This document shows positions 283 through 51,143 of a DNA stretch of 64,000 nt, one piece after another; the stretch's first letter is position 1; every line of letters starts with the position of its first letter. The stretch covers positions 15,500,001 through 15,564,000 of the forward strand of contig CM097888.1 of NCBI GenBank assembly GCA_044892525.1. The letters are read 5' to 3'. This DNA is from Schmidtea polychroa (lineage: Eukaryota). Position numbers and translations under genes: made by a program. The notes beneath the pieces were generated by a model, which was not told the origin of the DNA, made no database searches, and worked only from the letters and a program-made list of their open reading frames with translations.

Positions 283-806
283 AGTAGGTAGTTAGTGGCC
301 CCCTACACGACTATCCGGTGGGGGGTTTGCTGCAATAATGTTTTTGCTCAGCTATTACGTAATTGCTGCAGTGAGACACTCTTATTTTTTCTGGGATTTT
401 CAATACAAAAAAGGTTCTATACAAAAAGACTGTTTTTTCTGACTATACTTAGGGTGAAGGTTTAAGGAGACCCCCTAATTATAGTCAGAAATATCCATGC
501 TTTTTTAGTGTAGAATGATATTTGTATTGAAAATCCCAGAATCAAGGAGACCCACTTTAATTCATGCTTTATCTAGAATTGGATTTTGTATTGAAAATTC
601 CAGGATCAATCGAGACGCCCTCAGTATAGTCAGAAAAACATGGCTTTTTTTATATAGGACATTTTTTGTATTTTAAATCCCAGAAAAAATAAGAGTGGCC
701 CACTGCAGTAATTACATAACCGTTGAGCAAAAAAATACTGCAACAAACTCCCTCCTGGGGACTCCCAAAGGATGGTCAGGTTGTAGGGGGCCACTAAATA
801 CCTACA
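283..806. mobile_element. Miniature non-autonomous element with Polinton-like termini (candidate mini-Polinton)
   Basis: About 25-bp TIR (AGTAGGTAGTTAGTGGCCCCCTACA ... TGTAGGGGGCCACTAAATACCTACA) flanked by identical 6-mers GAAGTG at 277-282 and 807-812. Interior has degenerate repeats (GAAAATCCCAGA) and no credible ORF. Confidence 0.6.
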
Positions 807-32000: not shown

Positions 32001-32110
32001 TATTGAAAAAGTACAAAGTACTTGTGTGTTAGAAAAGAATATAAATCGATTAATTGGAATATAGCTGTGGTAACTAAAAGATGAGAGCTAGAAATTCTGT
32101 ATAGCGTTTA

Positions 32111-33006
32111 AGTAGAGAGAAGTGTGCTCCATGACTCATCGTTTTTTGTCATTTTTTTGCACTACCCCCCCCCGATGACTCAGTGCAAAACAAAGACATA
32201 TGACTCATCGATGACTCATCCATTGCAACCGTGGTAACTGGATCAAGGTCATATGACTCACCCATAGCAACCATGGTAACTAGATCAAGGTCGCATGACT
32301 CATCCATAGCAACGGTGGTCCCCATGGCAACTAGGCCAAGGTCATTCTATTTTTAGCAACAAGGTCACATGACGTCATCGATGACTCATCAAGGTCATTC
32401 TATTTTTAGTAAATAGGTCAAGGTCATTCTATTTTTAGTAACAAGGTCACATGACTCATCATTTTTAAACAAAGACGATGACTCATCATTAAAGTACATA
32501 TGATTCATCACCGTTGATCCTGCCCGATGACTCATCATTTTTAAACAAAGAAGATGACTCATCAAGGTCATTCTATTTTTATTAACAAGGTCATATGACT
32601 CGTCATTTTTGGAACAAAGCCAACTGACTCATTATTAAAGTATGTATGACTCATCATTTTTTAAACAAAGACATTTAATCAAATATTTAAACAATGACAT
32701 GTAAACAAATATTTAAATAAATACATTTAAACAAATATTTAAACAAAGACATTTAATCAAATATTTAAACAAAGACATTTAATCAAATATTTAAGTACAT
32801 TTAAACAAAGACATATAGACAAAGACTCATCGATGACTCATAGTTTAGATAGGGGGTTTCTTTTTTTTTGCATACTCCCCCCCCCCTTGTATGACTCATC
32901 GATGACTTTTTTGAACAAAGACCAATCATTTATTTTTAAAACAAAGACTCATCACACGACTCTAATTTTTAGAACAGACTTCTTTTTTGGAAAACCAAAA
33001 TTTATT
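32111..33006 (+). repeat. Left TIR of Polinton (at least ~900 bp, runs into N gap)
   Basis: Reverse complement of 47541-48338; internal tandem subrepeats (ATGACTCATC, AAGGTCATTCTATTTTTAG, ATTTAAACAAAGAC). Confidence 0.93.
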
Positions 33007-33218
33007 NNNNNNNNNNNNNNNNNNNNNNNNNNNNNNNNNNNNNNNNNNNNNNNNNNNNNNNNNNNNNNNNNNNNNNNNNNNNNNNNNNNNNNNNNNNNNN
33101 NNNNNNNNNNNNNNNNNNNNNNNNNNNNNNNNNNNATAATAATAATTAACTTAATAATATTTATGCCAATAATAATAATAATATATCAGACAAAAGATAA
33201 TTTAAATCAATACATTTA

Positions 33219-33719
33219 TTAAACAATGAAATAATTTAAAATTAACAATGGCCATTTAAATATTGATGTACTCATATTTGCTGCCATCTTGTTTGAAATT
33301 GGTAACGTTGAATTGGTTTTCAAATTTTCTATCGATTCTTTTATTGTTCGAATTTCGAATATTATTAAATCAATCTTTCTTAACAAATGATCATGTTTCT
33401 TATCAATAATTTTCATATTCTTTTTATTTTCAACAATTGAGTTATTGAAAACCTCAATATGATCAATCAATTTAAATTTTATATTTTGTATATATTCAAA
33501 AGATAGGTCATAGCTGTTTTCTAAATTCTCCAATCTTTGGGATATTCTTTTTCCTGGATGCTTTGCCCATTTTGGTTTGTCAAGAATATAGAAAATATCC
33601 ATCAACTTGGCGGTATTTGGACAAATACATATTGATTTATTAAAAGGCTCCACCGTTATTGTTGTATTGTGTGAGCACACATTCCTTATAATAATTAGCA
33701 ATAGAAATATAGTTTTCAT
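33219..33719 (-). CDS. Polinton accessory protein: signal peptide, N-glycosylation sequons, coiled coil, hydrophobic C-terminus
   Basis: 166 aa: MKTIFLLLIIIRNVCS leader, sequons NTT, NKS, NNS, NST, NMS; heptad-like central region; tail IFKWPLLILNYFIV. Confidence 0.7.
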   Translation of the reverse strand: MKTIFLLLIIIRNVCSHNTTITVEPFNKSICICPNTAKLMDIFYILDKPKWAKHPGKRISQRLENLENSYDLSFEYIQNIKFKLIDHIEVFNNSIVENKKNMKIIDKKHDHLLRKIDLIIFEIRTIKESIENLKTNSTLPISNKMAANMSTSIFKWPLLILNYFIV

Positions 33720-33761
33720 GTTGTATCAAATCTATTATGTTTTACATTTATAGTCTATCAA

Positions 33762-33801
33762 CCAATCAGAATCATATTACACACACACAGTAGTATAAAT
33801 A
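33762..33801 (+). promoter_or_regulatory. CCAAT box and TATA box upstream of the Bcl-2-like gene
   Basis: AACCAATCAGA at 33760-33770 and TATAAATA at 33794-33801, ATG at 33831. A minus-strand TATAAAT at ~33746-33752 could serve the divergent gene. Confidence 0.55.
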
Positions 33802-33830
33802 AGACAGTATATTAAAAATTATTGTAAAAA

Positions 33831-34348
33831 ATGTCTAAATTTATTGAAAACGTCCTAAATGGACTAGTCACAGCGAATATAGTCGACAGCCTCAATTTCC
33901 TGGTCAATCGGACCGAACAAATTATTGAAGGCAACCATATCGACTACCAGAGCATGCTTGATATGGATTGTCTTGAATCAAAGAAGAATTATTTTAACAA
34001 TATATTTCAATGTCTCTGCGATGAAGACATGCAATGGACAAGAATTATTGTAGGGTTCACCTACATGAAGATAATCATTGCGAAAAGCCAACATGACTCA
34101 GAACATTATTATCAGTGGTCTTTAGAAGTAAATTTATTATTATTATTTTTATTATTATTATTTTTTAGATAATCAAATCCAAGTTTAGTCCATGGATAGA
34201 AGATAATGGCGGATGGGATACACTCAATCAACTCGCCCGCAATGCTAAAGAAACTGATGAAATCAAAAGAAAAATGAAAAACTATATTAAACTCACAACA
34301 GGAGTTGTTTTATTGTATATGTTATTTAAATATTTAAATAAATATTAA
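33831..34348 (+). CDS. Bcl-2 family protein (viral Bcl-2-like), 2 exons, 158 aa
   Basis: Exons 33831-34127 and 34169-34348 with a 41-nt GT-AG intron. BH1-like MQWTRIIVGFTY, BH2 PWIEDNGGWD, C-terminal membrane anchor LTTGVVLLYMLFKYL. Confidence 0.85.
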
Positions 34349-34390
34349 TTTTTGTTATTTTTCTTATGTATAAAAAACAAATTTTAAAAT

Positions 34391-34819
34391 TTAACATTTA
34401 TTAACACATTCACAATAGTCATCTCCACATTTCATAATATTATCAACTACATGATCTATACAATCGTTAGGTTGTTCTTGATTGTTTTCTCCATCAATTT
34501 CTTGGATGTTTTCTCCATCAATTTCTTGGATGTTTTCACTAATTTCTTGGGTGTTTTCACTAATTTCTTGGGTGTTTTCTCCATCATTTTCTCCATCAAT
34601 TTCTACATCAGTTTCTTGACTCACTTCACTTTCATCAAATCCTGAATCTTGACTTTCAACTATCCAGCCTATATTTAATGCATTTGCAACAGATAATATA
34701 TCCTCAACATTTACACCAGCTATTTCTGCCAATTTTTCCAACAAAAAGTTGATTACAATTTCTAAATAATAAATAATTCGGTAAGTTATTAATCAAAATT
34801 AACCTTTTTCTGTAGTCAT
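34391..34819 (-). CDS. Polinton accessory acidic repeat protein, 2 exons
   Basis: Exon 34819-34804 (MTTEK), 42-nt GT-AG intron, exon 34761-34391 in frame. Repeats of QEI(S/D)(G)EN and a Cys-rich tail CGDDYCECVNKC. Confidence 0.65.
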
Positions 34820-34971
34820 TTTTATTAACACTTTTAAACTATAATGTAAGTTTGTTTATAGAATGTCTTTGTTAAATTTGCATTACTGTTGCATTAATAT
34901 TAATAAAATAAATAAGATTAAATACATTAAATACATTTATTAAAATACATTATATACATTTATTAAATACA

Positions 34972-35379
34972 TTAAAATAGTTGTGAAAGCCTAGCAGACA
35001 TAATTTTCCAAATTGGAGAATACACATCATTATTATCGACTTTATATCCTTGGATTGCAATTGTTATATACCAATTTTCGTTTTCTTTGAAACTGATTTC
35101 ATCAAAGGCATCATAAAATTTTGCATATCGGTTGTTGAACCATGCATTTTGATTACATGATAGATTTGAATTCAACCGTTTGAAAACTTCATCTATGGTT
35201 TTAACATCTACCATTGAAAGCGTGCCGGATAAGAATTGAAATTGAGTTGGAATTAACTTGACCGGTGCAACCAATTTCATATTGATTTCTTCTTTTAAAA
35301 AATACATTTTGTAGTTGTGGAACATTTGAACAGGCTGAACAAGTTCATCTTTCGGTTTTTCAGTGCATTTCTTGACCAT
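34972..35379 (-). CDS. Polinton accessory protein, possible OB-fold ssDNA-binding protein
   Basis: 135-aa intact ORF with its own TATAAAA (35414-35420) and CCAAT (35442). Beta-rich C-terminus YITIAIQGYKVDNNDVYSPIWKI; function is inference only. Confidence 0.65.
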   Translation of the reverse strand: MVKKCTEKPKDELVQPVQMFHNYKMYFLKEEINMKLVAPVKLIPTQFQFLSGTLSMVDVKTIDEVFKRLNSNLSCNQNAWFNNRYAKFYDAFDEISFKENENWYITIAIQGYKVDNNDVYSPIWKIMSARLSQLF

Positions 35380-35675
35380 CGTGAATTATGATTAAAATGA
35401 AATGGTACAGGGTTTTTATACCTTCAAAATAAATGGAACAACCAATCAGATTAAAGTTTAAATTACATCAATGTTGCACATGCTTTGCATTTGTATTGCA
35501 CATGTCTTTGTTTAAATTGCATCAATGTTGCACATGGTTTGCATTAATGTGTCTTTGTTTAAATTGCATTAATGTTGCACATGTATGATTATTATTATTA
35601 TTATTTTTGGTCATCAATATATAAAAAAAAAAAACAAAATACATAAAAAATATTTATTAATTTAAATCAACAATC

Positions 35676-35873
35676 CTAGAATAAGTTTCTAAGTGTTTTT
35701 ACTAAATTCCATTCTACATATCGCTGATAACGACCAACTGCATCCAATGATACATGGATATTCCATTTCTTTCTGCATTCTGTCGATCTACTCATTGGAA
35801 TTGATTTAATATATCGAACATCCAGATTCTTGTATACCAAATCTGGTATAATCTCTGGATCCCTGTCCTTCAT
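35676..35873 (-). CDS. Small hypothetical Polinton ORF, possibly disrupted
   Basis: 65-aa ORF between two accessory genes on the same strand. An upstream 41-nt intron-like stretch (35920-35960) does not give a clean in-frame model. Confidence 0.35.
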   Translation of the reverse strand: MKDRDPEIIPDLVYKNLDVRYIKSIPMSRSTECRKKWNIHVSLDAVGRYQRYVEWNLVKTLRNLF

Positions 35874-36057
35874 TCAATTGAGGATAGAAATACTTGAGGC
35901 AATCATTTGGAATATTCATCTATAAAATATATAAAAAATATATATAAATTAAAAATTTACCGTAATTATCGATCTCAGACATTGATTTTGCCGCGCTAGT
36001 ATTAATGACATCTAAACAGTTAATATTATTATTATTAACCAATTAGAAATTAACCAA

Positions 36058-36495
36058 TTAGAAATCGACCAATGAATTTAACTCATTCCGAACATTGTTA
36101 ACAAATTCCCTATAGTCTAAATTTCTCAACCCAAGCATGACAACCTTTCCACTTGAAAACACATTGACACATATAGGGTTATATTTTAATAGTCTTAATG
36201 CCGGAAACAATTCCGGTTCAAACATACAATCACATTTTCTCGATATTTTGTATAAATTGATAGTATGTCCCATATCCATAGTAACGGTAATTGATTGAAT
36301 TTTAATATTATTGATTCGATATTGTAATTTATTAATATCCAATGGTTCCTTACATCCCATAATTCTGCATTTGCCAGTCTTGAAAAATATTATCGGATAT
36401 TTCCCGCTTCTATCGACAATTTGCTGTGGTTTTCCTGGTGGGAACCTCATTTTTGAAACATCAAAATTTCCTCGATAATTTATATTTGCAAGCAT
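36058..36495 (-). CDS. TATA-binding protein (TBP)-like protein encoded by the Polinton
   Basis: 145 aa, two half-repeats: IIFFKTGKCRIMGCK (cf. LIFxSGKMVCTGAK) and FEPELFPAL...VNVFSSGKVVMLG (cf. YEPELFPGL...LLIFVSGKVVLTG). Confidence 0.85.
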   Translation of the reverse strand: MLANINYRGNFDVSKMRFPPGKPQQIVDRSGKYPIIFFKTGKCRIMGCKEPLDINKLQYRINNIKIQSITVTMDMGHTINLYKISRKCDCMFEPELFPALRLLKYNPICVNVFSSGKVVMLGLRNLDYREFVNNVRNELNSLVDF

Positions 36496-36603
36496 AATTA
36501 AATCATTTATGAAATTTTACTCTTTATATACAACTTTAGCAAGAGTTCATTAAAATCATCTAATATAAACAATAACTAGATATTTTAAAATTAAAAATAA
36601 AAA

Positions 36604-37227
36604 ATGCAATTAAGAAATGATGCAGTATACCAAATCGTTGGCCCGAGTGGTAGCGGGAAAACATTGTTTGTTTGTAAATTATTACAATCAAAATTATTCA
36701 AGTCAAAATTTAATAAAATTTATTGGCATAGGGGAGCTGATGATGAAAGCGGAATGACACAAGATCAGTTTTGTAAAATCAAAATGACAATCATAAAAGG
36801 GTTCGATAAAAACTGGTCATCTAGATTACGACAGGGTGATGTGATTATTATTGATGATTTATATCAAGAAGCAAATAAAGAAAAGGATTTTAATAATTTG
36901 TTTACAAAAATTAGTAGACATAAAGGTGTCACTGTAATTTTTATCACTCAAAATCTTTTTCATCAAGGTGGATCTCACCGAACTCGTAATTTGAATGTTC
37001 AATATTTAGTTGTTTTCAAAAATCCGAGAGATGCTACAGTGATTGACTTTCTTGCAAGGCAAGCATATCCAAATAATCGAAATTTCTTAATGAATGCATT
37101 TGTCGATGCAACAAAATCCCCACATGGATATATTTTTCTAGATTTTACACAACAGTGTCCTGATGAATTACGAGTAAGAACAGATATATTTAACAAGGAA
37201 GGAGCTATAGTATATAAACAAAGATAA
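36604..37227 (+). CDS. Genome packaging ATPase (A32/FtsK-like)
   Basis: Walker A GPSGSGKT, Walker B IIIDD, RHKGVTVIFITQN and N..YLVVFKNPRD motifs. Confidence 0.95.
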   Translation: MQLRNDAVYQIVGPSGSGKTLFVCKLLQSKLFKSKFNKIYWHRGADDESGMTQDQFCKIKMTIIKGFDKNWSSRLRQGDVIIIDDLYQEANKEKDFNNLFTKISRHKGVTVIFITQNLFHQGGSHRTRNLNVQYLVVFKNPRDATVIDFLARQAYPNNRNFLMNAFVDATKSPHGYIFLDFTQQCPDELRVRTDIFNKEGAIVYKQR

Positions 37228-37248
37228 AACCAAAATAAATTATCAATC

Positions 37249-37740
37249 ATGTTACTAAAAACTCGTGTAAAGACAAAACCTACAAGAAGGAAACCTGCAA
37301 AAGTGGTTAAGATTCCACCAAAAACTAGTTTCACACCATCGAAAAAATTGCTTATTGATAATATTCCGCCGAGTAATCGTATTCCACCGAGTAATCATAT
37401 TCCGCCGAGTAATTCTCATCGTAGTTTTCCGTTTTTCATTGCATTACTTAAGGCTCCCAGTATGAGAAGAATGAATATTTTACAGTCTTTTCCAAATTAT
37501 GTTATTGATGATTTACTTGCTATTTTAATTAAAGTTGTTAAAGGTAAATTCCGTATAAGTACATCAAATAAAAAGATTTTGAACAGACACAAGAAACCAC
37601 TATTATCATTAGTAAATACTAAAAATAAAAAACGTATGCGTAAAATCATATATAAACAACAAGGAGGCTTCATTGCAGCCTTGATACCAATAGCATTATC
37701 TTTATTGGGAGGGGCAGGTTTATTAAAATCATCATCATAA
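37249..37740 (+). CDS. Basic virion/core precursor protein with C-terminal QxGG cleavage site and amphipathic tail
   Basis: Lys/Arg-rich 163 aa ending KQQGGFIAALIPIALSLLGGAGLL, a pattern typical of small Polinton virion proteins. Confidence 0.75.
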   Translation: MLLKTRVKTKPTRRKPAKVVKIPPKTSFTPSKKLLIDNIPPSNRIPPSNHIPPSNSHRSFPFFIALLKAPSMRRMNILQSFPNYVIDDLLAILIKVVKGKFRISTSNKKILNRHKKPLLSLVNTKNKKRMRKIIYKQQGGFIAALIPIALSLLGGAGLLKSSS

Positions 37741-37795
37741 ACAATGGGTCAATCATTACCAAATCTTAATTTGAATTTTAAATCCTCCTGTTGTA

Positions 37796-38183
37796 ATGGA
37801 GAAGATTTGGACGAACCCAGAAGACGAAGCCGGTTTCGGTGGAGTGGCAAAATTAAAGAAAAGAGTTCCGAATTCGAAAAAAGAAACCCAGAAGTGGTTA
37901 TCAAATCAACTAGCGTACAGTTTGAACAAACCAATGCAGAAAAGATTTCCAACAAGAGCGTATAAAACATATGGAATAAATGATTTGTGGCAAATGGATT
38001 TGATGGAGATGATACCCTATTCAAAAATTAACAAGGGGTATAAATATATTTTAACGTGTATTAATGTATACAGCAGGTTTGCACGAGCAATACCAGTCAA
38101 GTCAAAATCTGCAGATGAAATGTCCAAAGCTATTAATATTTTATTTAAAAATGGACATCCTAATAATTTACAAACGGATTTAG

Positions 38184-38221
<38 letters not shown>

Positions 38222-38865
38222 ATATTATTATTATTTTAGGTAAAGAATTCTACAACAGTAAAGTTAAGCAAATCCTCGATAAACTGAAAATAAATCACTA
38301 CTCGGTACATTCTCAATACAAAGCTGCTCATGTTGAAAGATTTAACAGAACCTTGAGAGATAGATTAAAGAAATTGTTCGTGTATCAAGGTAATAAAAAA
38401 TGGGTATTGGTTTTACCAAAAATTATAACCAGTTATAATAATTCATCACATCGAGGACTTAATGGATTGAGACCGGTTGATATCACATCAAAAACATTCT
38501 ATTCTAAAAAATCTGAAAAAATTACAAAACCGAAATATAAAGTTGGTGACCATGTTAGAATTAGTAAAATTAGTGCATCACCATTTATTAAAAATTTCGA
38601 TACAAATTGGAGTGATGAAGTCTTTGTAATTTCGAAAATAAATACTAGCCAGAACCCTGTGATGTATGTCATCAGAGATTCTGAAAATAACATTGTACAA
38701 GGGAAATTTTATGAGCAAGAATTACAAGTCATTCCTCCCCCAAAAGTATTTAGAATTCAAAAAATATTGAAAACTAAAATGGTGGGTAAGGATAAACAAT
38801 ACTATGTCAAATGGCATGGATATAAAAACCCATCATGGATATCGTCTCGAGACCTCGTAAAATGA
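37796..38865 (+). CDS. Retroviral-type (rve) integrase with C-terminal chromo-like domain, 2 exons
   Basis: Exons 37796-38183 and 38240-38865 with a 56-nt GT-AG (ATT)n intron. Splicing restores DLWQMDL...LQTDLGKEFY...VERFNRTL (D-D-E); C-terminus YYVKWHGY...SWI. Confidence 0.95.
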
Positions 38866-39881
38866 ATTTTTACATTATTTTGCCAAGTAATAGTTGTCCG
38901 AATATACATCCAGAAAACACTGCCAGTAAATTTATGGTCAATCTCCAAAATCCGATTTATTTAAATGGTAATTGGGAAGTTGCTCTCCTTGACTTTACAT
39001 TTGTGTACAATCTCTTTCCAATTTATAGTAAAGCTAAAATTGAATATAAAAAGAAAGAGACGCAAAGAAATATCTCTTTTGTCATTGATAATGTAGAAGA
39101 TCGAATTGATATTGGTCCTTCCGATTCAATTGTCAAAATGTATATTGATCGTCAATATTTAATAGTTGAATGTAAATATCATCCCTTTACTATAAAATTT
39201 GATAGTTTAGCAATGGCAAAACGATTGGAATTAACAAGTCAGAGTAATAGAAATCATACTAATATATTCCAAGTACTACGGCCGAGATTTACCAAAGTAG
39301 CAGCGCGATATGAGACAATTTCAATGAAAGTTGAGTTTGAGGGTGAAACTGAAAATACATATACGTTTAATGAGAATTTATACATTTCTAAATTGGAGGA
39401 ATTACAATCATATTTAATTCAGAATTGTGGATCAATATTTAAATCATTGGAATTAGTAGACAATACTTTGTTCAAATTCAGTTTGAATACTGATATTACT
39501 GAAATTACTTTTGATAAAAATCTAATAAAAACATTAGGATTATCAAAAGGAACATATATTCAAGATGGAAAATTAAATGTAGGTATGAATAAACCGAAAA
39601 TAATTAAACTTCATCATCAAATGTTTCTCTATACTAATATTATTGAACCCATAATTGTTGGTGATTCTTTGGTTCCTCTATTGAAATCTATTTGGGTTGA
39701 GAAACATGAACAAGATGATGTTGTACAAATCAATGTAGAAAATCCCATGTATTTGCCTGTTTCAACATCCTGTATAAACAATATAGAAATAAATATAAGA
39801 GATGATTCTGGTCAATTAATCGAATTTGCAAAAGATTCAAAAACTCATTTGACACTACATTTTCGTAAAGTAGATGGCTAA
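38862..39881 (+). CDS. Minor capsid protein (penton, single jelly-roll)
   Basis: MNFYIILPSNS...F.VNL.NPIYLNGNWEVALLDF and MFLYTNIIEPIIVGDSLVPLLK...YLPV...INNIEINIRDDSG...LHFRK. Confidence 0.9.
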   Translation: MNFYIILPSNSCPNIHPENTASKFMVNLQNPIYLNGNWEVALLDFTFVYNLFPIYSKAKIEYKKKETQRNISFVIDNVEDRIDIGPSDSIVKMYIDRQYLIVECKYHPFTIKFDSLAMAKRLELTSQSNRNHTNIFQVLRPRFTKVAARYETISMKVEFEGETENTYTFNENLYISKLEELQSYLIQNCGSIFKSLELVDNTLFKFSLNTDITEITFDKNLIKTLGLSKGTYIQDGKLNVGMNKPKIIKLHHQMFLYTNIIEPIIVGDSLVPLLKSIWVEKHEQDDVVQINVENPMYLPVSTSCINNIEINIRDDSGQLIEFAKDSKTHLTLHFRKVDG

Positions 39882-40260
39882 TTCTGATATTATTAGTATG
39901 TATAGTGGTAGCCAAAGTGGTGGCGAATTACCATATTTTGTTGGTAAACAGTACGGAAGTGGGTGGTTGAGAACAATTGGTAGATTTGCGTTACCAATTC
40001 TTAAACGTATTGGTAATTTCGGTATGAAAACTGCAAAAGATGTAATTATGAATGACAAGAAAATATTACCATCGTTGAAATCAAATGCAATTGCTGAAAT
40101 AAGTAAAGTAATACCTGGTATGTTTAAAACTGAACCAGCACTGGTACCAGTAAAACGTAAATTTGAAAGTGAAATTAAAACAAGTATGGGAACTAAACGC
40201 AAGAGAGGGAGGCATATAAACAAACGAATGAAAGGACACGGAACCATATTTGAAGAATGA
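39874..40260 (+). CDS. Small conserved Polinton core/virion protein
   Basis: QSGG and QYGSGWLRTIGRFALPILKRIG motif; basic C-terminus; lies between the penton and major capsid genes. Confidence 0.8.
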   Translation: MANSDIISMYSGSQSGGELPYFVGKQYGSGWLRTIGRFALPILKRIGNFGMKTAKDVIMNDKKILPSLKSNAIAEISKVIPGMFKTEPALVPVKRKFESEIKTSMGTKRKRGRHINKRMKGHGTIFEE

Positions 40261-41483
40261 TTTGCGGTAAATCTGAATTATGTCTATTTGATCGACCATC
40301 GCCTCAGGCGGTTATCGAATATGGAGCATTTGAAGATGTATTTCCAATGAATTCTATTACCGATAGTAGAAATGATGTGGAATTTTACATTAATGGTTCT
40401 CAAACAGAATATTTAGATTTGAACGATACTTTGTTGTATGTTCAAATAAAAGTTGTAGATAAAGACAATAAAGCATTAGCTGCAGATGATACAACTGAAC
40501 CTAATAATTTCTTGTTTCATACTCTCTTTAAAGATGTTATTCTTGGATTTAATAACATTAAAATTGAGGGTGGAAACAATACATATGCTCACAAGGCAAT
40601 TATCGAAACTATTTTAAATTATAATAATGATACTAAAGATACTTGTCTAACTCCAATGGGATATGGTGTATCTGATGATCGAAAAAAGTGGATTAAAGGC
40701 TCAAAAACTTTCAACATGTGTTCATCTCTACAATTGGATTTTATGGATCAACCCAAATATTTACTACCAGGTGTTAATGTACATATGAGATTGAAAAGAT
40801 CTGATTCTGCATTGTCATTATCAACTGGAGTTGCAGGTGCAGCACCTAAATTAATATTACTCGATGCCAAATTAATGGTTCGAAGAGTTCGATGTGAATC
40901 GTCTGTATTAGCGGGACATCAAATTGGATTAAATACCAAACATGCAATTTATCCGATAAAAACAAAAGAAATTGTATCATTTGCAATTGCTAAAGGAGCA
41001 TCATCTTTTTACAAGGAGCAAATATTTGGAGATCGAAGAATGCCTAATTTTATCCTTGTAACTTTTCAAAGTGAAGCTCAATATAACGGATCTTATGATA
41101 CATCTTCATCAAAATTCAAACACTTTAGTGTAACTTCTCTTTCATTATCGAAAAATACTGATTATCGAGAAACTTATACTCAAGATTTTGATAATGATAA
41201 TTATTGTACTTCATATATGCAAAGTCTTGTCAGAAATTTAGGATATTTGGATAAAAATCTTAATTGTGGTATAAGTCTGGAAGAATTCAAAACATTCTAT
41301 CCATTTTTCACATTTGTTCTGGCTCCAGATTTTGATTTAAATCAAAGTCAATTACCTCAAAGTGGCAATTTGAGATTGGATATTAAGTTCGGTAAAGCAA
41401 CTACTGAACCAGTCCATGTAATAATCTATGGGGTTTTTGAAAATGAAATCCAAATTACTGCAAATCGAACTGTACTAGTATAA
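40257..41483 (+). CDS. Major capsid protein (double jelly-roll)
   Basis: 408 aa; SELCLFD.P..Q, EF.I.GS..EYLDLNDTLLYV, NNFLFHTLFKDV, Y..KA.IET.LNY, LQLDFMDQPKYLLPGV, LRLDIKF. Confidence 0.93.
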   Translation: MICGKSELCLFDRPSPQAVIEYGAFEDVFPMNSITDSRNDVEFYINGSQTEYLDLNDTLLYVQIKVVDKDNKALAADDTTEPNNFLFHTLFKDVILGFNNIKIEGGNNTYAHKAIIETILNYNNDTKDTCLTPMGYGVSDDRKKWIKGSKTFNMCSSLQLDFMDQPKYLLPGVNVHMRLKRSDSALSLSTGVAGAAPKLILLDAKLMVRRVRCESSVLAGHQIGLNTKHAIYPIKTKEIVSFAIAKGASSFYKEQIFGDRRMPNFILVTFQSEAQYNGSYDTSSSKFKHFSVTSLSLSKNTDYRETYTQDFDNDNYCTSYMQSLVRNLGYLDKNLNCGISLEEFKTFYPFFTFVLAPDFDLNQSQLPQSGNLRLDIKFGKATTEPVHVIIYGVFENEIQITANRTVLV

Positions 41484-41513
41484 ATGAAGAAATTTAAAAG
41501 ATTAAAGTTTTTT

Positions 41514-41898
41514 ATGGAGTAAGATTTTTATTTTATAATTTAACTTATTGATTAGTTCTATTCAGGTGTCTCGAATTGGTACTCAATTATTGGGAAACGA
41601 ATTTCTTGGAGTTTATCCACTGGATAAAATTCCATATTTGAGAAATAATCAAGCCATAATCGTCAATACTCATACATCTAGTTTAGGAGGTGAACATTGG
41701 ATTGCTGTATATGTGAAACCAAACCGAGTATATGCATTCGATCCCTTTGGATATTATTACCCAAATTTATTAATTAGTAAATTGCAAACTATTGGTAAAC
41801 CTATTGTATATAATCGAACTCGGTATCAAAATCCATTTTCAATTACTTGTGGCCAACATTGCCTTGCATGGTTGTTATCAATGTATAATTTTGTTTAA
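41514..41898 (+). CDS. Adenain-like cysteine protease, 2 exons
   Basis: Catalytic H (GEHWIA), D (FDPFG) and Q/C (YQ...CGQHC). A 37-nt GT-AG intron (41519-41555) joins ATG GA to T TCT ATT CAG, giving an MDSIQV start. Confidence 0.9.
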
Positions 41899-41920
41899 TA
41901 AATGTATTAAATGTCACAAG

Positions 41921-41971
<51 letters not shown>

Positions 41972-41989
41972 ATTATTAATTAATTTTAT

Positions 41990-42200
41990 TATTCATATCA
42001 ACAAATTTCATGCACTTGTATTGCATGTCTTTATGTGAGTAACAAAGACATTATTTGTTACTATGTGAGTCATCGATGACTCATTCTTTTTTAAACAAAG
42101 ACATGAATATGTGTGCGTTAATTTTTTCTATCCTATCTGCATTTTGATTGGATAAACGTTACATATATAATCTATGTTTTTGTAATTCTTTTTCATTTAT
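41990..42200 (+). promoter_or_regulatory. Putative promoter/enhancer of the polymerase unit
   Basis: TGAGTCA and TGACTCA, AACAAAGACAT twice, ATTGG at ~42147 and TATATAA at ~42164, upstream of ATG 42206; same motif set as the TIRs. Confidence 0.5.
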
Positions 42201-42205
42201 TCAAA

Positions 42206-43060
42206 ATGCAAAATATTTCAAATGAAATCAAGGAAATGATTCGAAGAAATCGTATGGGTAATTTTTTTTTTAATGTTTTTATTTTTATTTATATTTTAGT
42301 CTACATTAATGAAAATAATGTTTCGGGAACTTATAATTTTTCAGCAAGTAATGGAATTGAAAATAATGTTTCCGGAAATTATGGTAAATTTAATTTTTAA
42401 ATTATTATTATTATTATGATTTTTTAGTAAATAATGCTGTACACAATCTCGCGTGCAAGAAACCTAAATGTAGGTTTTTTAAAATTTTAAAATTAATATG
42501 CTTTAAATTATTATGATTTTTAAATTAATTTACTTTAAATTATTATGATTTTTTAAATTAATATGAAGTCAATTTTGTTATAAAGAAAATGTATGAAGTC
42601 AATTTTGTTATGAAACAAATAATGAAATTAATTTTTATAAAGAAAATGAATATGTTTTTATTTAATTAAAATAAATTTAAATATAATACACTTATGAGCA
42701 AGGGAGGGACAGAATATTTTGTCGTATAAACTCAGATTATATAGTAATAATAAATAATAATAATTTTGATAATAATAATAATAATAATTTTGATAATAAT
42801 ACTATTTTACTTATTTTATAGGTTATAAATATCCAACCTTTTGTAACAGTGCTACACATCATGACTGTGACGATATTATGGAAAAATATTATGGTCATGA
42901 ATATAAAAGTGTAACATACTTGTTATGTCCTACATGCCAAACTCTTGAAACATCGACATATACCGAATTTTATGATAAACATCGTAATCATTTAACCCAA
43001 TATATGCCTTCTAAAAAATCAGTTTTCAAAATTGCGTATCAAAAATATATCATCAACTAA
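42206..43060 (+). CDS. Spliced zinc-finger ORF upstream of pPolB, probably its N-terminal exons
   Basis: Exons 42206-42257, 42300-42383, 42428-42469 and 42822 onward, all GT-AG with compatible phases; encodes CPTC...HRNH. Confidence 0.6.
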
Positions 43061-46000
43061 TAATAGGAACACCGAAAACTTACAAAATCGACAATTAATG
43101 GAAACATCAACAAAAATCAATAATAGGACCACCAACAAAAGTATGATTAATGCCATGTTGATACAAAATCGACAATTAATGGAAACAGTCAATAGATTAA
43201 TAGGAATAATAGGTAATAAAAGACATTTAGAAATTCCCACAGAAATTCCCACAAAAAAGATGAAAGAAATAATAGTCATTAGTGAAGACGACGATGATGT
43301 TGTAAGTAATGAAGTTGTAAATAGTGAAGTTGTAAATAGTGAAGTTATAAATAGTGAAGTTATAAATAGTGAATTTGAAAATAGTGAATTTGAAAATAGT
43401 GAATTTGAAAATAGTGATGTTGTACCCCAAGTAGGTAGTGGTATAGTCGACGTAGTTTCCGACCTGAATAGTTCCCATGTAATAGTTAAGTTGGATATAT
43501 CTTCCTTGAATTGTAAAATTCTTTCTGTTCCTGACGTTCTCATAGAAAAATTGTTAGAAATTGTAAATAAAATGAAATCAGTAAAAATTCAATTTTGTAT
43601 TAAAGTAGAGTTTGAGAAAAATGATGAATTTCAGTCTTTCATAATCTCAAACTCTGCTCGTGTATGGAGCGACACATTTATTGATGATGGTATCTCTCTT
43701 TTAAATGAAAAAATTAGTAAAATAAATGAAAAGGGAAGTAATTGGACCATTAACAAAATAGAATACATTAGTTTTATTGTGACAAAATATTCAAAGATTA
43801 GTAGGTTGAGTGGTCGTAAATATATTGAAACCCCGAAAACATTAATCAGGAAAAAATGTATAATAAATGTAAATAATGATGACGAATTTTGTTTCCTTTA
43901 CTCGGTTTTGGCTCTTATAAAATATGATAGTACTCCTGATGAATTGCGTCATCTGCCTAGTTCTTATAACCTTTCAGATCTGATATATAACCCGGCAGAT
44001 ATGCCAATGAAATTATCAAATATCTCAAAATTTGAACGACAAAACCCAGGTTATTCAATTAATGTTTTAAGTTATGACGAAACTGGGTTAATTTCGGGTC
44101 CCATCATGAAACATCCTTTTATAGATATAATTTATCGCAGTAAAATAGTAGGAGGTACTTGTCTAAATTTGTTATTATTACAGAATCGGAAAACCTACCA
44201 TTACGTCGCTATATCTGATTTAAACATCTTTCTTAATTGCCGAAATTCATCAATAAGTTCTGTTCGTATTTACTGTAAGTGGTGTCCTAGATGTCTGAAT
44301 GGATTCAGATTTGAAGATAGTTTTATTAAACATCAAGGTCTTTGTGAACGAAACCAATTAGGAACCACAATGTACACACTACCAAAAGATCCATTATTAG
44401 AATTCACAGACTATAGTAAAATGATTACTCCTCCTTTTGTTATTTATGCCGATTTTGAGGCAATCCTTCCTAAAGATTCTAAATATTATCAGAAACATTT
44501 ACCCATTTCGGCTGGACTTTTATGTATAAATAATAATACAGGCGCAAAATTTTATAAATCATTCATAGGCCTTTCTTGTATAGACGAATTTTTAAAAGAA
44601 ATTAATGATATCGCTAAAAAGATTGTAACTCCCTATTATTATAAAAATAAAAATAAGAAAATGATATTCATAGAAAATGACCAAATTAATTTTAATAACA
44701 GCACAAACTGTCATTTGTGTAAAAAATTATTAGTTAAACCAGTCAGGGATCATGATCACTTTACCGGTCAATTCCTTGGTGCTGCTTGCAACACTTGTAA
44801 TCTTTCCAGGAAAATATACCACACACTACCTGTAGTCTTTCATAATATGAGAGGATATGATCTCCATCATATCCTCAAATTTGGCTTGGCTAAATATAAG
44901 TCCTGGCATATTTCTTGTATACCGGTGACAAGTGAAAATTTTTTATCTCTTTTTGTGCATATTGATTCCCTGACTGTGAAATTTATAGATTCTTGTCAGT
45001 TTGTAAATTCGTCTTTGAAAAATGCTGTCTCAACCCTTAACACATTACCTTTGACAGAATCTGAGTTTAGAGGGTCTATTATTAAGAGTAAAGGGATTTT
45101 CCCTTATGATGTAGCAACTTCCCTTGATGTATTAATTTCTACATTAGAATTGCCCCCTAAATGGAGTGATGTATCCGATGATGAATACAATAAAGCAAAA
45201 CTAATCTGGCAAGAGACATCATGTAATTCCCTTTTGGATTATATGATGGTCTATTTGAAATTAAATGTATTTCTGTTGGCTGACTTTTTTCAGCAATTCC
45301 GAGCTAAGAGTATTGCTCATAATAGGCTTGAGCCTTTGAATTTCCTAGGTATCCCCAGTCTTTCTTGGAGTTCTGCTTTGTTAAGTCTTGATAAACCGAT
45401 TGAGCTTCTCACCGACATGGAAATGTATAATTTCTTTGAAGGTGGGATTAGAGGTGGGATAACGTTTGTGAATAAACATTTTGTTAGTAGTGATGAAAAT
45501 ACAGAGTTGTTGTATATTGACATCAACAACCTGTATGGATGGGCTTTATCACAAAAGCTTCCCGACGGTGGTTTTGAATGGGTGACTGATGACATTGCTT
45601 TAGAGAGATTATTAATTGAGTGCACAACGGAAGATTTAAATCAACTTGATTATGGCTATACTATAGAAGTAGATTTAAAAATACCGAAATCTATCCATGA
45701 CAAACTAGATGATTTTCCGGTAGCTCCTGGTAAGATGTGCCCACCTTTTTCTAAAGTGGAGAAGTTGCTACTTACACACGATCCGAAAACACACTATGTT
45801 TTACATTGGCGACTTCTCCAAATCTTTCTTCAGTTAGGTGTTGTTGTTACCAAGGTACATAGGGCTATTAGGTATACACAAAGCACTGTCTTCAAGAAAT
45901 ACATAGATACCAACACACAACTACGAGCCGCATCCATAACACCGCTCGATAAAGACTATTACAAGTTGCTCAATAACAGTTTGTATGGAAAAACTGTTGA

Positions 46001-46784
46001 GAACTTGAAAAAACGTATTAACTTACGACTGTGCAATTCCGCACAAAAACTTATCACATATGCCTCAAAACCGGCATTTAAGAAATCTACTAGGATAGAC
46101 GATGATTTGATTTCGGTTTTGCTTATGAAAGAGTCTGTATGTTTAGATAGGCCCAGCTACATCGGGCAAACTGTACTTGATCTTTCTAAACTGAGAATGT
46201 ATCAGTTGCAGTATAATGAATTGCAAAAATATCGCGATGAGTTTAACTGTGAAATTAATATAGTAGCTAGTGATACAGACTCTTTCTTTTTGGAAATTAA
46301 AAATTGTAGTCTTGACATTCTCTTACCTGCCATGATTCGTGACTCCTTGCTTGACACATCTAATTATAACCCACAACATCCTTTATATAGTAGAGCACTA
46401 GATTCCGTCATTGGAAAATTCAAAGACGAGAATAAAGGATTGAGATATAAGGAGTGGGTGTTTCTTCGTCCCAAGTGTTACAGCTTATTAGGTGATAAAG
46501 AAACTCTTAAAGCAAAATCTGTCACGTTGAAAGATACTGGCTTAGATCACAATTCCTATCGTGATTGTTATTTTAACAATAAGGTTTACTCTGTGCCACA
46601 ATTCCGCATTGCATCCAAAAATCATCAATTGTACAGCATAAAAAACATTAAGAAGGCGCTGACAAATAGAGATGACAAGCGGTATTGGAAATCGAAAAAC
46701 AAGAGTTTGGCATATGGGCATTATCGGATAGGGGACACTTTTATATATGATGATGACGACAATTTTGACGGAGAAAATTACTGA
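43032..46784 (+). CDS. Protein-primed family B DNA polymerase with endonuclease VII-like insert
   Basis: 1250-aa ORF. Exonuclease YADFE, FHNMRGYD, KGIFPY; CHLC...RDHDHFTGQFLGAACNTCN; polymerase motifs YIDINNLYG, KLLNNSLYGK, SDTDS. Confidence 0.97.
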   Translation: MRIKNISSTNNRNTENLQNRQLMETSTKINNRTTNKSMINAMLIQNRQLMETVNRLIGIIGNKRHLEIPTEIPTKKMKEIIVISEDDDDVVSNEVVNSEVVNSEVINSEVINSEFENSEFENSEFENSDVVPQVGSGIVDVVSDLNSSHVIVKLDISSLNCKILSVPDVLIEKLLEIVNKMKSVKIQFCIKVEFEKNDEFQSFIISNSARVWSDTFIDDGISLLNEKISKINEKGSNWTINKIEYISFIVTKYSKISRLSGRKYIETPKTLIRKKCIINVNNDDEFCFLYSVLALIKYDSTPDELRHLPSSYNLSDLIYNPADMPMKLSNISKFERQNPGYSINVLSYDETGLISGPIMKHPFIDIIYRSKIVGGTCLNLLLLQNRKTYHYVAISDLNIFLNCRNSSISSVRIYCKWCPRCLNGFRFEDSFIKHQGLCERNQLGTTMYTLPKDPLLEFTDYSKMITPPFVIYADFEAILPKDSKYYQKHLPISAGLLCINNNTGAKFYKSFIGLSCIDEFLKEINDIAKKIVTPYYYKNKNKKMIFIENDQINFNNSTNCHLCKKLLVKPVRDHDHFTGQFLGAACNTCNLSRKIYHTLPVVFHNMRGYDLHHILKFGLAKYKSWHISCIPVTSENFLSLFVHIDSLTVKFIDSCQFVNSSLKNAVSTLNTLPLTESEFRGSIIKSKGIFPYDVATSLDVLISTLELPPKWSDVSDDEYNKAKLIWQETSCNSLLDYMMVYLKLNVFLLADFFQQFRAKSIAHNRLEPLNFLGIPSLSWSSALLSLDKPIELLTDMEMYNFFEGGIRGGITFVNKHFVSSDENTELLYIDINNLYGWALSQKLPDGGFEWVTDDIALERLLIECTTEDLNQLDYGYTIEVDLKIPKSIHDKLDDFPVAPGKMCPPFSKVEKLLLTHDPKTHYVLHWRLLQIFLQLGVVVTKVHRAIRYTQSTVFKKYIDTNTQLRAASITPLDKDYYKLLNNSLYGKTVENLKKRINLRLCNSAQKLITYASKPAFKKSTRIDDDLISVLLMKESVCLDRPSYIGQTVLDLSKLRMYQLQYNELQKYRDEFNCEINIVASDTDSFFLEIKNCSLDILLPAMIRDSLLDTSNYNPQHPLYSRALDSVIGKFKDENKGLRYKEWVFLRPKCYSLLGDKETLKAKSVTLKDTGLDHNSYRDCYFNNKVYSVPQFRIASKNHQLYSIKNIKKALTNRDDKRYWKSKNKSLAYGHYRIGDTFIYDDDDNFDGENY
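43304..43420 (+). repeat. 15-bp coding tandem repeat (AATAGTGAAGTTGTA; NSEVV/NSEFE) in pPolB N-terminal linker
   Basis: About 7-8 copies visible. Confidence 0.85.
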
Positions 46785-47540
46785 TCATTTCGGTAATAAT
46801 AATAATTATTATTATAATTATTATTTTTTATTATTAATAGTTGTCAATGAAGCCAAGATTGTAAGAAACAATCAATGCAACAGACATTTGTAAAAATGAC
46901 AATGTAAAATTGTAAATTTGTAATTTAAATATATTTTGTTGATTNNNNNNNNNNNNNNNNNNNNNNNNNNNNNNNNNNNNNNNNNNNNNNNNNNNNNNNN
47001 NNNNNNNNNNNNNNNNNNNNNNNNNNNNNNNNNNNNNNNNNNNNNNNNNNNNNNNNNNNNNNNNNNNNNNNNNNNNNNNNNNNNNNNNNNNNNNNNTGCA
47101 CTTGTATTGCATGTCTTTATGTGAGTAGAAATTACTCAGTTAGTAACAATGACTCATCGATGAGTCATATTCAGAGAACAAAGCATCGATAATATCCAAT
47201 TCTGATTGGTTAGATGTTATCGATACTTTGTACATCTTTTCAAATGAGGTAATTATTATTTTTTTATGATTTAAATTTTTTTTTATAATGAAATTTTTTT
47301 ATGATTAATTTTTATTTTTTTTTTTATGAAACCAGTTTTTATGAAAACAAATTATATGATTTATGAAATAAATTTTATGAAAACAAACTTTTTNNNNNNN
47401 NNNNNNNNNNNNNNNNNNNNNNNNNNNNNNNNNNNNNNNNNNNNNNNNNNNNNNNNNNNNNNNNNNNNNNNNNNNNNNNNNNNNNNNNNNNNNNNNNNNN
47501 NNNNNNNNNNNNNNNNNNNNNNNNNNNNNNNNNNNNNNNN

Positions 47541-48338
47541 CAATAAATTTTGGTTTACCAAAAAAGAAGTCTTCTAAAAATTAGAGTCGTGTGATGAGTC
47601 TTTCTTTTAAAAATAAATGATTGGTCTTTATTCAAAAAAGTCATCGATGAGTCATACAAGGGGGGGGGGAGTATGCAAAAAAAAAGAAACCCCCTATCTA
47701 AACTATGAGTCATCGATGAGTCTTTGTCTATATGTCTTTGTTTAAATGTACTTAAATATTTGATTAAATGTCTTTGTTTAAATATTTGTTTAAATGTATT
47801 TATTTAAATATTTGTTTAAATGTATTTATTTAAATTTTTGTTTAAATGTATTTATTTAAATATTTGTTTAAATGTATTTATTTAAATATTTGTTTAAATG
47901 TATTTATTTAAATATTAAATATGTCTTTGTTTAAAAAATGATGAGTCATACATACTTTAATAATGAGTCAGTTGGCTTTGTTCCAAAAATGATGAGTCAT
48001 ATGACCTTGTTACTAAAAAGAGAATGACCTTGACCTAGTTACTAAAAATAGAATGACCTTGATGAGTCATCGATGACGTCACGTGACATTGTTACTAAAA
48101 ATAGAATGACCTTGACCTAGTTACTAAAAATAGAATGACCTTGACCTAGTTACTAAAAATAGAATGACCTTGACCTAGTTACCACGGTTGCTATGGATGA
48201 GTCATATAACCTTGACCCAGTTACCGCTGTTGCTATGGATGAGTCATATGTCTTTGTTTTGCGCTGAGTCATCGGGGGGGGGGGTAGTGCAAAAAAATGA
48301 CAAAAAACGATGAGTCATGGAGCACACTTCTCTCTACT
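47541..48338 (-). repeat. Right TIR of Polinton
   Basis: Reverse complement of the left TIR, with different subrepeat copy numbers. Confidence 0.93.
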
Positions 48339-51143
48339 CGTTTACGTGGAAATAAAATAAATATTAAAAACACAGCTGTGATGGAAACGAAAGAATGTGA
48401 CTATAAATTGGAAAAACAGATCAATCGAAAAACTGGTAGAATTCAGAACGATATTTGAACCAGAGAAATTGTGTCAATTGAAGAAGCCAATCAATACCAT
48501 TCTTAGGTAAAAAGTTTCATTAGTGAAGGATAAATTATTATCCTTTTGTTGTGGTCAATTTAGTATTCCCTGGGTGCCCCAAAATCATTAACCAACTTAC
48601 TTATCTTTTCTCTTATGGTTTATTCAGCGATCGTTGTGCTACACAGGAACCAACAATTTCTTACAGGCTGCGACAAACGGCAAGGATAAATCCGTTTCTT
48701 GTATTTGCTTTTACATCACATTGTATAAATTATTTTGTAAAATTATAAATAAAAATTATTTAAAAACAGAAGTTGGTTTTTTCATTAAAATTATTAATTA
48801 CACGCAACCACACGAAATATTCATTATTGACCTTATTAACATTAATATTATATTTATTGGAGTTAATTGTGTTAAGATTAGTGACACCCATGGGCGCTTT
48901 TACTAATAGGCAAACTTAGGCAACTGCCTAGAGGCGCCAACCGAAAAAGAGCGCTTGCAATATAATTTTCTTTGTAATTTTTTTTCCATAATTTTTATAT
49001 ATTTATTGATAATTATAATTAAATTATGTAATTAAACAAGATAATACTATTAATATACATTAATATTATTTATAAGTAGTACTTTGTTTTTGTTTTACTG
49101 ACGGTTTTTACTGATGGGTTTTCAAATTAGTTGTATGTAAAATAAAACGATTATAGAAGTTAAAATTTTTAAAAATTTGAATTCAAGTTGAATTTGTTAT
49201 AACTTTATAGTACAGAATATTTTATATTGCTATTTGGTGATTTATATAAAATTTTCTCTAAGTTATAATTTTATGGTAAGCGAATTTTACATATTTTAAA
49301 TATTTTTTTACAGAGGTATTGTTTTAAAATTTAGGTAAAATAAATTAAATGGAAGGGCGTAAAAAATAGTGGTTATCAAAGTAGAAAATTAGCAAAAGAA
49401 AAACAAAGAAGTTCGATAAAATCATTGAAAAAACAACTAAAACTAGATGGATTTTTAATTTAAAAACCCGGAGCCGTAGCTCAAGAACAGGTAAGCAATT
49501 GTGTTTCAATTGTGGAAATACATAACGAAACTACCACAGATGTCTCATATCAATTCAAACATTTAATGATTTAGAAAAAAATAAACACCCTGACACAAAT
49601 AATTTAGAATAAAACACTGACACATCTGCTAATTGTTCAAGAATGGTAAATCTGTCCGAAAATCACACAAACATTCAAATAAACCTTGATCCTGTTACAT
49701 GGAAACGGTGTGATGACTCTACTATTACATATTTATCTAATAAAAATAATTCCATTAGTCAAAACATCCCTACAGATTTCTCGTCAACAAAGAAGGTTTA
49801 TACCGACAAAAGAGCAAGATATTTAAATGAATGTGTTTTTTTAGAAGAAAATTGCAAAATGGTGAATTTATACGTCAAAATTATCTAGTATATTCTCAAA
49901 GTAACAAATCAGTTTATTGTGTTCCTTGTCGATTGTTAGGTGGTGGAACAGCACTGGCAACAACAGGTTATTCTGATTGGAAAATGTAACAGAATGCTTA
50001 TCTCAGCACGAATAATAAAGCAGCTATTATTAGGAGACTTTGCGTCAAATGTGAATGAACTATTAAATTCAGAAACTCTAAAGGGAAAAAAATTATTAGA
50101 TTCAGGTACTCAAACGGGTTGTGTGTATTATACGAAAACTTGCTAGCCAAACATTGCCTTTAAGAGGAAAAACTCAAATAATTGGAAACATTAATAATGG
50201 CAATTTTTTAATGGCCGTGGAATTAGTTGCCGAATTTGACCCGTTTGTAGCCGCGCATATTGAAAAATATGGAAATCCAGGAAAAGGAGGTACATCATAT
50301 TTATCGTCAAAAGTTTTCGAAGAAATTGTGATATTGATGGCCGAAAAAGTAAAACAACAAATATTTAAGGAATTATGAGAAGCAAAATATTATTCAATTA
50401 GTGTTGACTACATTCCTGACATATCACATACTGATCAAGTTGCTTTTATTATTCGATATGTAAAAAATGAAGTCCCCGAGGAACATTTTTTGAGGTTTTT
50501 GGAAAATGTAGCATAAATATGGAGGGGAAAGAAATTATACAATTTTTAAATGAAAACAAAATTGAAATAAAAATTTGAGAGGGCAATCATATGATAACGC
50601 TAGACACATGCCTGGAATTTATTCAGGACTTCAAGCACGAATTAAGAAAATCAATGAATTAGCTCATTTTATACCTTGTACAGCACACTCAATGAACTTG
50701 GTTGGAAAATTTGCGGCAGATTGTTGCCGAGATGCAGCATCCTTTTACAATTTTTTTACAAGAATTATTTAATTTCTTTTCTTCTTCAACAAGTCATTGG
50801 TTAGTGTTAACTACTACTTTAAAAGGGCGAACCATAAAATTTCTTTCCGAAACAAAATGGTCTTGTCCAACGTTCCCTCTAAGCTGGGCAAACGGGCGGC
50901 CGCCCAGTTAAAAATTGACATTTGCCCACTCAGCATTTCTATCCGCCCACTAGAAATTATTGCAAACAATAATTTTTTTTATTTGTCACCATTTTCATTG
51001 CGTAAACGACCCCAGTTGAAAATTTCGTATAGATTTCCACACTAAATTTTTTTATTATTTACATATTACAAAAATAAAATGATAAAAAAAATTTTTTTTT
51101 GAAATTTTGCCCAATTTTTTTAAAATTTAATATACTTGCACAC

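Follow-up and report, generated by a model that had tools for sequence, protein, structure and literature searches.

The window, the whole 64,000-nt stretch of Schmidtea polychroa DNA that we analysed, holds a 16.2-kb Maverick/Polinton element that carries a small Bcl-2 gene 700 nt inside its left terminal inverted repeat (TIR). The features of both are given in Table 1. We identified the element by the hallmarks of its class, namely long TIRs, AG-rich ends that start with 5'-AG, and a 6-bp target-site duplication. The TIR arms (I1, I2, I15) were 96-100% complementary.

Table 1. Features of the Maverick element and of its Bcl-2 gene, with positions in the window.
Feature	Position	Strand	Remarks
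Maverick/Polinton, 16.2 kb	32111..48338	.	ends AGTAGAGAG...CTCTCTACT
Left target-site duplication, 6 bp	32105..32110	.	CGTTTA
Left TIR, about 1 kb	32111..33135	.	internal tandem repeats; part is N
Accessory ORF, 166 aa	33219-33719	-	coiled-coil
TATA-like word	33793..33800	+	GTATAAAT, 31-38 nt before ATG
Bcl-2 gene, exon 1	33831..34127	+	99 codons, six predicted helices
BH3-equivalent helix	33900..33917	+	without GD; BH3 mapping is a reading of the alignment
BH1-like motif	34032..34058	+	QWTRIIVGF, Thr at canonical Gly position
Bcl-2 gene, intron, 41 nt	34128..34168	+	phase-0 GT-AG, TTA microsatellite, T-rich 3' end
Bcl-2 gene, exon 2	34169..34348	+	59 codons plus stop
BH2 motif	34193..34216	+	WIEDNGGW, no intron after it; aligns to Bcl-xL BH2
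Predicted C-terminal membrane anchor	34286..34336	+	mean hydropathy of 1.44 in a 17-mer, flanked by basic residues
Candidate polyadenylation signal	34337..34342	+	AATAAA
Accessory ORF	34391-34792	-	acidic
Accessory ORF, 135 aa	34972-35379	-	
TBP-like gene	36058..36495	-	PF00352, E 3e-16
Packaging ATPase	36604..37227	+	Pox_A32-like, Pox_A32 E 1e-6
DDE integrase with chromodomain, split by intron	37796..38865	+	rve E 4e-7
Integrase intron, 56 nt	38184-38239	+	phase-1, GT-AG
Conserved ORF, 408 aa	40257..41483	+	major capsid candidate by size and position, without Pfam match
Adenain-type protease	41514..41898	+	Peptidase_C5 E 1e-7
Predicted protease intron, 37 nt	41519-41555	+	GT-AG, just past start codon
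PolB-type DNA polymerase, main ORF, 1228 aa	43098..46784	+	family-B motifs read by eye
Right TIR	47413..48338	.	
Right target-site duplication, 6 bp	48339..48344	.	CGTTTA

The core genes have counterparts in other Mavericks. The TBP-like gene kept 53% identity in a distant sister lineage, and capsid candidates of 408 aa and 348 aa were conserved across Maverick lineages. The intron of the integrase interrupts a glycine codon of the core and ranged from 42 to 117 nt among four other copies; a segment similar to the predicted protease intron was also found in a lineage whose Bcl-2 gene is intronless. For the PolB-type ORF a weak match to Endonuclease_7 was the sole Pfam match, and no PolB family matched at E≤0.5. 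The AT-rich region 5' of this ORF (42206-43100) contains several TTA-rich GT..AG-like segments, together with an open frame of 86 aa that includes cysteines; the region probably holds spliced PolB leader exons. On the minus strand, the interval from the 135-aa gene to the TBP-like gene holds a 65-aa open frame (35676-35985) with a donor-like site near 35962, possibly another small spliced gene. The three accessory genes around the Bcl-2 gene were conserved and had no significant Pfam family.

The sequence-only reading had described the gene as a Bcl-2 homologue that an intron hides from the ORF track, and every element of that description agreed with the sequence. The unspliced ORF (33831-34172) encodes 113 aa, and removal of the 41-nt GT..AG segment joins 99 and 59 codons into a product of 158 aa, with QWTRIIVGF in exon 1 and WIEDNGGWD and a hydrophobic tail in exon 2. 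Alignment also bore out the replacement of the BH1 glycine by threonine and the missing BH3 GD. The BH1 region aligned to the Bcl-2 family with its Trp and Arg retained, and the predicted C-terminal anchor aligned with the tails of Bcl-xL and of the host gene described below. To follow these positions we used 132 rows, which are loci with an exon-1 match, drawn from search tables and not at random, with three duplicate loci dropped and a few intronless places represented twice. The BH1 glycine position held Thr in 79 rows, Ser in 42, another residue in 4, and was unreadable in 7, so that all 125 readable rows lacked Gly. In an alignment of 19 rows the BH3 leucine (L24) was invariant and GD was absent throughout (19/19); the LxxxGD motif of pro-apoptotic Bak and Bax was found in none of them. 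Upstream, the TATA-like word GTATAAAT occurred 18 times in the window, where 9.3 +/- 3.1 matches would be expected by chance, and stands again 36 nt before the protease ATG; it is likely the putative promoter of the Bcl-2 gene.

The Bcl-2 gene is highly repeated, which allowed the supposed intron to be examined across copies. The 751-nt Bcl-2 region was present in at least 40 copies at 97-100% identity in the same genome (40 scored of 1941 candidates), and exon 1 matched all 150 of the places scored at 82-100% (2417 candidates). Among the 132 rows, the junction segment was located in 89, absent in 2, and not found by pattern in 41. The two rows without it were the host gene L032 and L133, whose sequence is decayed and has stops at the junction and which we did not count as a clean loss. 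The 41 pattern misses comprised 27 rows of the intronless lineage together with 3 close and 11 older copies, the older ones with exon 2 lost or decayed. GT..AG bounded 85 of the 89 located segments, which were 38-104 nt long and sat at one conserved codon boundary; their lengths fell into all three frames (14, 29 and 46 segments with lengths modulo 3 of 0, 1 and 2). Two further copies had segments of 71 and 131 nt. The boundary segment was present in subfamilies with exon-1 identities of about 97, 84, 65-70, 45, and 31-35%, and the interiors did not align between subfamilies, the microsatellite being absent from the older ones. Among 20 near-identical copies exon 1 was 297 nt in 20/20 and exon 2 was 180 nt in 19/20, while the intron ranged from 38 to 50 nt and held almost all of the length change.

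Comparison with cellular protein sequence placed the exon junction exactly. Exon 1 ended at residue 126 and exon 2 started at residue 127 of a planarian Bcl2-like protein, with a gap of 0, and when 12 Bcl-2 sequences were aligned, a copy with its in-frame intron read through showed a private 16-residue insert. We calculated dN/dS for 19 pairs against the window copy, which are not independent of one another, and obtained 0.01-0.21 for exon 1 where dS was unsaturated and 0.21-0.54 for exon 2. These ratios indicate purifying selection on both exons. Since a short GT-AG intron also splits the integrase and another is predicted in the protease, the element appears to depend on short introns in any case. 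Together the comparisons argue very strongly that the Bcl-2 gene of this Maverick is a spliced gene. That the 41-nt segment stays in the transcript, either as an inserted microsatellite by which the gene is cut short or with the 113-aa read-through product as the real one, is highly improbable: the segment is short and microsatellite-filled in the window's subfamily and the public gene calls (P0003, P0004) are unspliced ORFs only, but GT..AG is held at one codon boundary in all three frames, around sequence not alignable from one subfamily to the next, older subfamilies have a junction segment free of the microsatellite, exon 2 is under purifying selection, and the integrase core is split in the same manner. 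We found no minimum intron length stated in the available text of a Dugesia genome preprint. At 34355, 13 nt past the AATAAA, one contig from run X2 breaks off into an unmatched tail of C followed by 16 A, and all 41 matching genomic strings (some places counted twice) run on T-rich there; this is a weak hint of a polyadenylated transcript, and we did not count it as evidence.

We assessed membership in the Bcl-2 family by profile and by predicted structure. For exon 1, PF00452 (Bcl-2) was the sole Pfam match at E≤0.5, at E 0.0038 and 18.2 bits, below the gathering score of 31.4 bits. Longer relatives passed this score: P0006, a natural copy 97% identical to the window gene with a 48-nt in-frame intron read through, reached 34.4 bits, P0005, the intronless 144-aa protein of a sister Maverick, 32.7 bits, and the host protein P0007 45.9 bits. 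Searched by sequence against PDB, exon 1 alone had no match, exon 2 alone matched Bcl-xL (best E 0.001), and a profile of exon 1 matched BAK first (E 4e-5) with Bcl-xL behind (E 0.1). The Atlas placed exon 1 in the Bcl-2 family (0.93, 209 shared features) with recognition below threshold. The families of E1B-19K and poxviral Bcl-2-like proteins (PF01691, PF06227) were not among the Pfam matches at E≤0.1, and appeared only as minority families in Atlas clusters and in weak rows of the fold search.

The model of P0005 (pLDDT 80, pTM 0.77) superimposed on Bcl-xL with Z 14.2 and an rmsd of 2.2 A over 120 aligned residues (Foldseek probability 1.0), and the top 37 rows of its fold search were all Bcl-2-fold entries by title; against a viral library its matches were Bcl-2-like and weak (best E 0.02). 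Exon 1 modelled alone gave six helices at pLDDT 61, with a best Foldseek E of 0.7 and a best VIA Z of 5.6, to an unrelated chain. The structural check that the sequence-only reading had proposed thus came out clearly for the intronless sister and with weak matches for exon 1 of the window. Because exon 1 alone folds weakly, the fold evidence rests on this sister protein, which is 23% identical; with that model as its basis, a Bcl-2 fold for the product of the window gene is predicted with near certainty.

Searches for further relatives returned little. The unspliced ORF matched only two unspliced gene calls in protein databases, a protein search with P0005 confirmed 0 of 27 candidates, a library of 1.84 billion proteins yielded only P0004 and one 20-residue repeat match, and 0 of 30 pattern matches in viral contigs were confirmed. 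Of 252 metagenome candidates one, L197, remained, and we dismissed it as coincidental; it falls within a 420-aa bacterial ORF that neighbours a TonB-receptor-like gene.

Among 15 host-context Bcl-2 loci (L021-L035), only L032 was matched by the Maverick exons, and by sequence comparison this single host gene is their nearest cellular relative. L032 is single-copy, its next-best matches being Maverick copies, and it shares 86-87% identity with the Schmidtea mediterranea 'Bcl2-like protein' entered in UniRef (C9WPR4, ACW83059.1; P0009), whose best PDB matches were Bcl-xL. The Maverick protein is colinear with the S. mediterranea protein over both exons and the tail (25% and 32% identity), and both have a BH1 of the form W-[ST]-R and lack the BH3 GD. 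The S. mediterranea protein differs in being 184 aa long, single-copy and cellular, with a longer loop between helices 1 and 2. L032 likewise has W-[ST]-R, in which Ser replaces the BH1 glycine, and is devoid of a BH3 GD. Since the host gene thus agrees with the element in both respects, both traits were likely inherited from it; the divergent motifs that the sequence-only reading had put down to a viral mode of evolution are present, but likely reflect this inheritance and not virus-driven divergence. Seven other host-type copies (L021-L027, C4:89.9-90.8 Mb) are near-identical to one another, carry canonical NWGR, and appear to lie in a segmental duplication. At L033 about 0.8 kb separates a Maverick-type TBP-like fragment (positions 230-664, minus strand) from a Bak-like exon of the host.

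The intron position, which the sequence-only reading had suggested comparing with host Bcl-2 genes, proved not to be common to the two. L032 has an intron of 2972 nt directly after the GGW of BH2 (we found its last exon, which matches P0009), and the short Maverick intron lies 16 codons upstream. GT followed GGW directly in 5 of 8 host-context Bcl-2 loci (L032 and four others), a site which we take to be an old animal Bcl-2 intron site, and no Maverick copy examined had an intron there. With the host intron 16 codons away, the Maverick intron was likely gained within the element. The sister lineage with an intronless Bcl-2 gene, one codon shorter at the junction, has integrase, capsid candidate, protease, PolB and TBP-like genes alongside it. 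The simplest history would be that an intron-free copy of the host gene was captured and that a new intron then arose in part of the Maverick radiation.

The phylogeny with host Bcl-2 genes that had been proposed was run on the exon-1 region (31 rows, 103 columns); its deep forks stayed open, among them the one that joins the host gene to the Maverick genes. A single Maverick clade (p-AU 0.22) and a clade of the intron-bearing genes (p-AU 0.56) were neither rejected nor shown. As the tree neither shows nor rejects capture followed by gain, an early gain of the intron with later loss in the intronless lineage is a possible alternative history.

The same tree bears on the direction of transfer. 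An old viral Bcl-2 could have arrived with the element and L032 could be its domesticated copy, or the traffic could have been mixed; the tree does not separate L032 from the Maverick genes, one planarian entry was the only L032 orthologue found, the Atlas cluster nearest to P0005 was 55% viral (E1B-19K 20%, Bcl-2 16%, a weak assignment with recognition below threshold), and Bcl2 genes are present in adintovirus elements of fish and nematodes, according to the labels given in PMC8502044. We consider this quite unlikely, because the L032 intron occupies the site directly after GGW where GT also stands in four other host Bcl-2 loci, and a domesticated copy would need to have regained an intron at precisely this point. 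The 20 kb around L032 contain no Maverick core gene, and L032 has the longer helix 1-2 loop and a higher family-model score than the Maverick copies. Transfer from host to element is thus strongly favoured, and the proposal of a captured apoptosis regulator found support in the Maverick context, in the Pfam and fold matches, and in the one clear cellular relative.

A Bcl-2 gene in a Maverick is not new in itself, as homologues of Bcl2 and IAP have been observed in adintoviruses (Starrett et al. 2021, PMC8502044). The element described here resembles adintoviruses in carrying a Bcl-2-family accessory gene in a Maverick/adintovirus genome. The adintovirus Bcl2 occupies one sentence of the main text and three labels in Supplementary Fig. 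S2 of that report, so that the likeness is one of labels; the string 'splic' is absent from the main text, and the passages available give no donor gene, splicing or function. The planarian gene is set apart by being spliced, by its intronless sisters, and by a traceable cellular relative. What we add is the test by intron position, the intronless sister lineage, the non-canonical BH1 common to element and host, and the fold. In the literature searched, partly in excerpt and with subscription papers and Repbase outside its scope, we found no description of a spliced Maverick Bcl-2.

Introns also set this element apart from other described Mavericks. The vertebrate elements are reported to be without introns in the text available to us (PMC8097293), a reported and non-defining trait that the planarian element lacks. 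Mavericks of nematodes (with wasp and krma) are described in the accessible part of 10.1101/2022.07.12.499685 as having intron-bearing cargo and intronless core genes; their cargo is taken to be host-derived with its introns, whereas the intron of the planarian cargo is not at the host position, and the core genes called intronless in nematodes are split in the planarian element.

The gene product shares with Bcl-xL and the viral Bcl-2 mimics a helical bundle predicted for the sister P0005, a BH2 motif, a predicted tail anchor and a compact size. After Bcl-xL, the P0005 model scored Z 12.8 with ASFV A179L and 12.1 with KsBcl-2. The identity to Bcl-xL, A179L, KSHV Bcl-2, BHRF1, GIV66 and E1B-19K is about 20% or less, and Thr or Ser stands in BH1. 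The Maverick gene is likely a capture from the host independent of the known viral Bcl-2 mimics.

We consider it reasonably probable that the product acts in favour of cell survival. In the portions of PMC7022251 available, the BH3 motif is said to be necessary for pro-apoptotic activity, and most viral Bcl-2 proteins that regulate apoptosis are said to sequester pro-apoptotic members through their groove; with no BH3 GD and a Bcl-xL-like host relative, we concluded that the role is probably pro-survival. Two findings speak against it, namely the absence of the BH1 glycine from all readable rows and the preference of the exon-1 profile for BAK. Replacement of the BH1 glycine impairs partner binding in mammalian Bcl-2 and Bcl-xL.

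In the mechanism we propose, an ancestral Maverick would have taken up the host gene in a form that lacked the post-BH2 intron, either via mRNA or with later intron loss, and one Maverick branch would then have gained a phase-0 intron 16 codons upstream, as happened in the integrase and protease. The host spliceosome would excise this intron, and the 158-aa protein would insert its tail in the mitochondrial or ER membrane. There it may restrain host Bak or BH3-only proteins and so lower mitochondrial apoptosis, and the delay in cell death would buy time for PolB-driven replication and packaging. Taken whole, a host-captured, spliced Maverick Bcl-2 that acts as a pro-survival viral Bcl-2 is our best explanation, one that we hold with some, and not high, confidence.

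A protein of Bcl-2 fold could instead act outside the BH3 groove, in autophagy, ER calcium or innate-immune signalling. Besides the lack of the BH1 glycine in every readable copy and of the BH3 GD, the roles of poxviral Bcl-2-fold proteins in NF-kB signalling and of herpesvirus and ASFV homologues in autophagy, as set out in the available text of PMC7022251, would fit such an activity, and the folds of A52, A46 and B14 also matched the P0005 model at Z 6-8. We nonetheless regard it as unlikely, as the canonical pro-survival folds stand far above these on the same model (Z 12-14), BH2 and the tail anchor are retained under purifying selection, and the same BH1 change is found in the cellular relative whose best PDB matches are Bcl-xL. 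It is improbable that the product is pro-apoptotic, or a dominant-negative decoy of a host survival protein that promotes particle release or the removal of element-free cells. The exon-1 profile does match BAK best, and nematode Maverick cargo can turn toxin (10.1101/2022.07.12.499685, in its accessible part), but the BH3 GD needed by pro-apoptotic members is absent, in sequence the nearest cellular relative resembles Bcl-xL, and the genome tolerates at least 150 copies whose exons are mostly open.

The pro-survival reading would be open to experiment in planarians, a group with RNAi and a known bcl2 knock-down phenotype, since loss of bcl2-1 leads to systemic cell death (PMC6970515 and PMC3566077, both citing Pellettieri 2010 in the passages available). 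An accession search linking the S. mediterranea Bcl2-like protein to the RNAi-tested bcl2-1 returned nothing.

Genes that counteract cell death are typically found in viruses whose replication kills or stresses the host cell. Maverick particles have not been seen, according to the available text of PMC8097293, and purifying selection on Bcl-2 across many Maverick lineages would support a replicative, virus-like phase. One genome here holds the likely donor, the intronless form and the intron-bearing forms, a natural series of capture and intron gain. For annotation, the consequence is that ORF-based methods miss Maverick genes in this planarian lineage.

Mavericks are not the only planarian elements with such a gene, as the giant Burro LTR retrotransposons carry a BCL2-like motif (PMC6431247, available text). 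In the same genome we found Burro-like LTR elements with a Bcl-2-like domain adjoining a viral fusion glycoprotein domain at about 80 places, and LTR-type ORFs with a Bcl-2-like domain, L042 and L173-L176 among them, reached about 3000 codons. The Burro Bcl-2 differs from that of the Maverick in being part of a polyprotein, in having no intron at either site, and in forming a long separate branch. We offer as a doubtful, speculative extension that planarian Mavericks are an intron-gaining virus lineage in which a host survival gene was stripped, given a new intron and amplified to hundreds of copies, and that with the independent Burro capture two classes of mobile element might set the apoptotic threshold of stem or germ cells, element-borne Bcl-2 contributing to host cell-death phenotypes. 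Elsewhere in the genome, L039 and L040 (C1:203.69-203.70 Mb) form a fold-back Maverick remnant with 3-kb arms that are 99.6% complementary, each of which holds the Bcl-2 gene and pieces of PolB.
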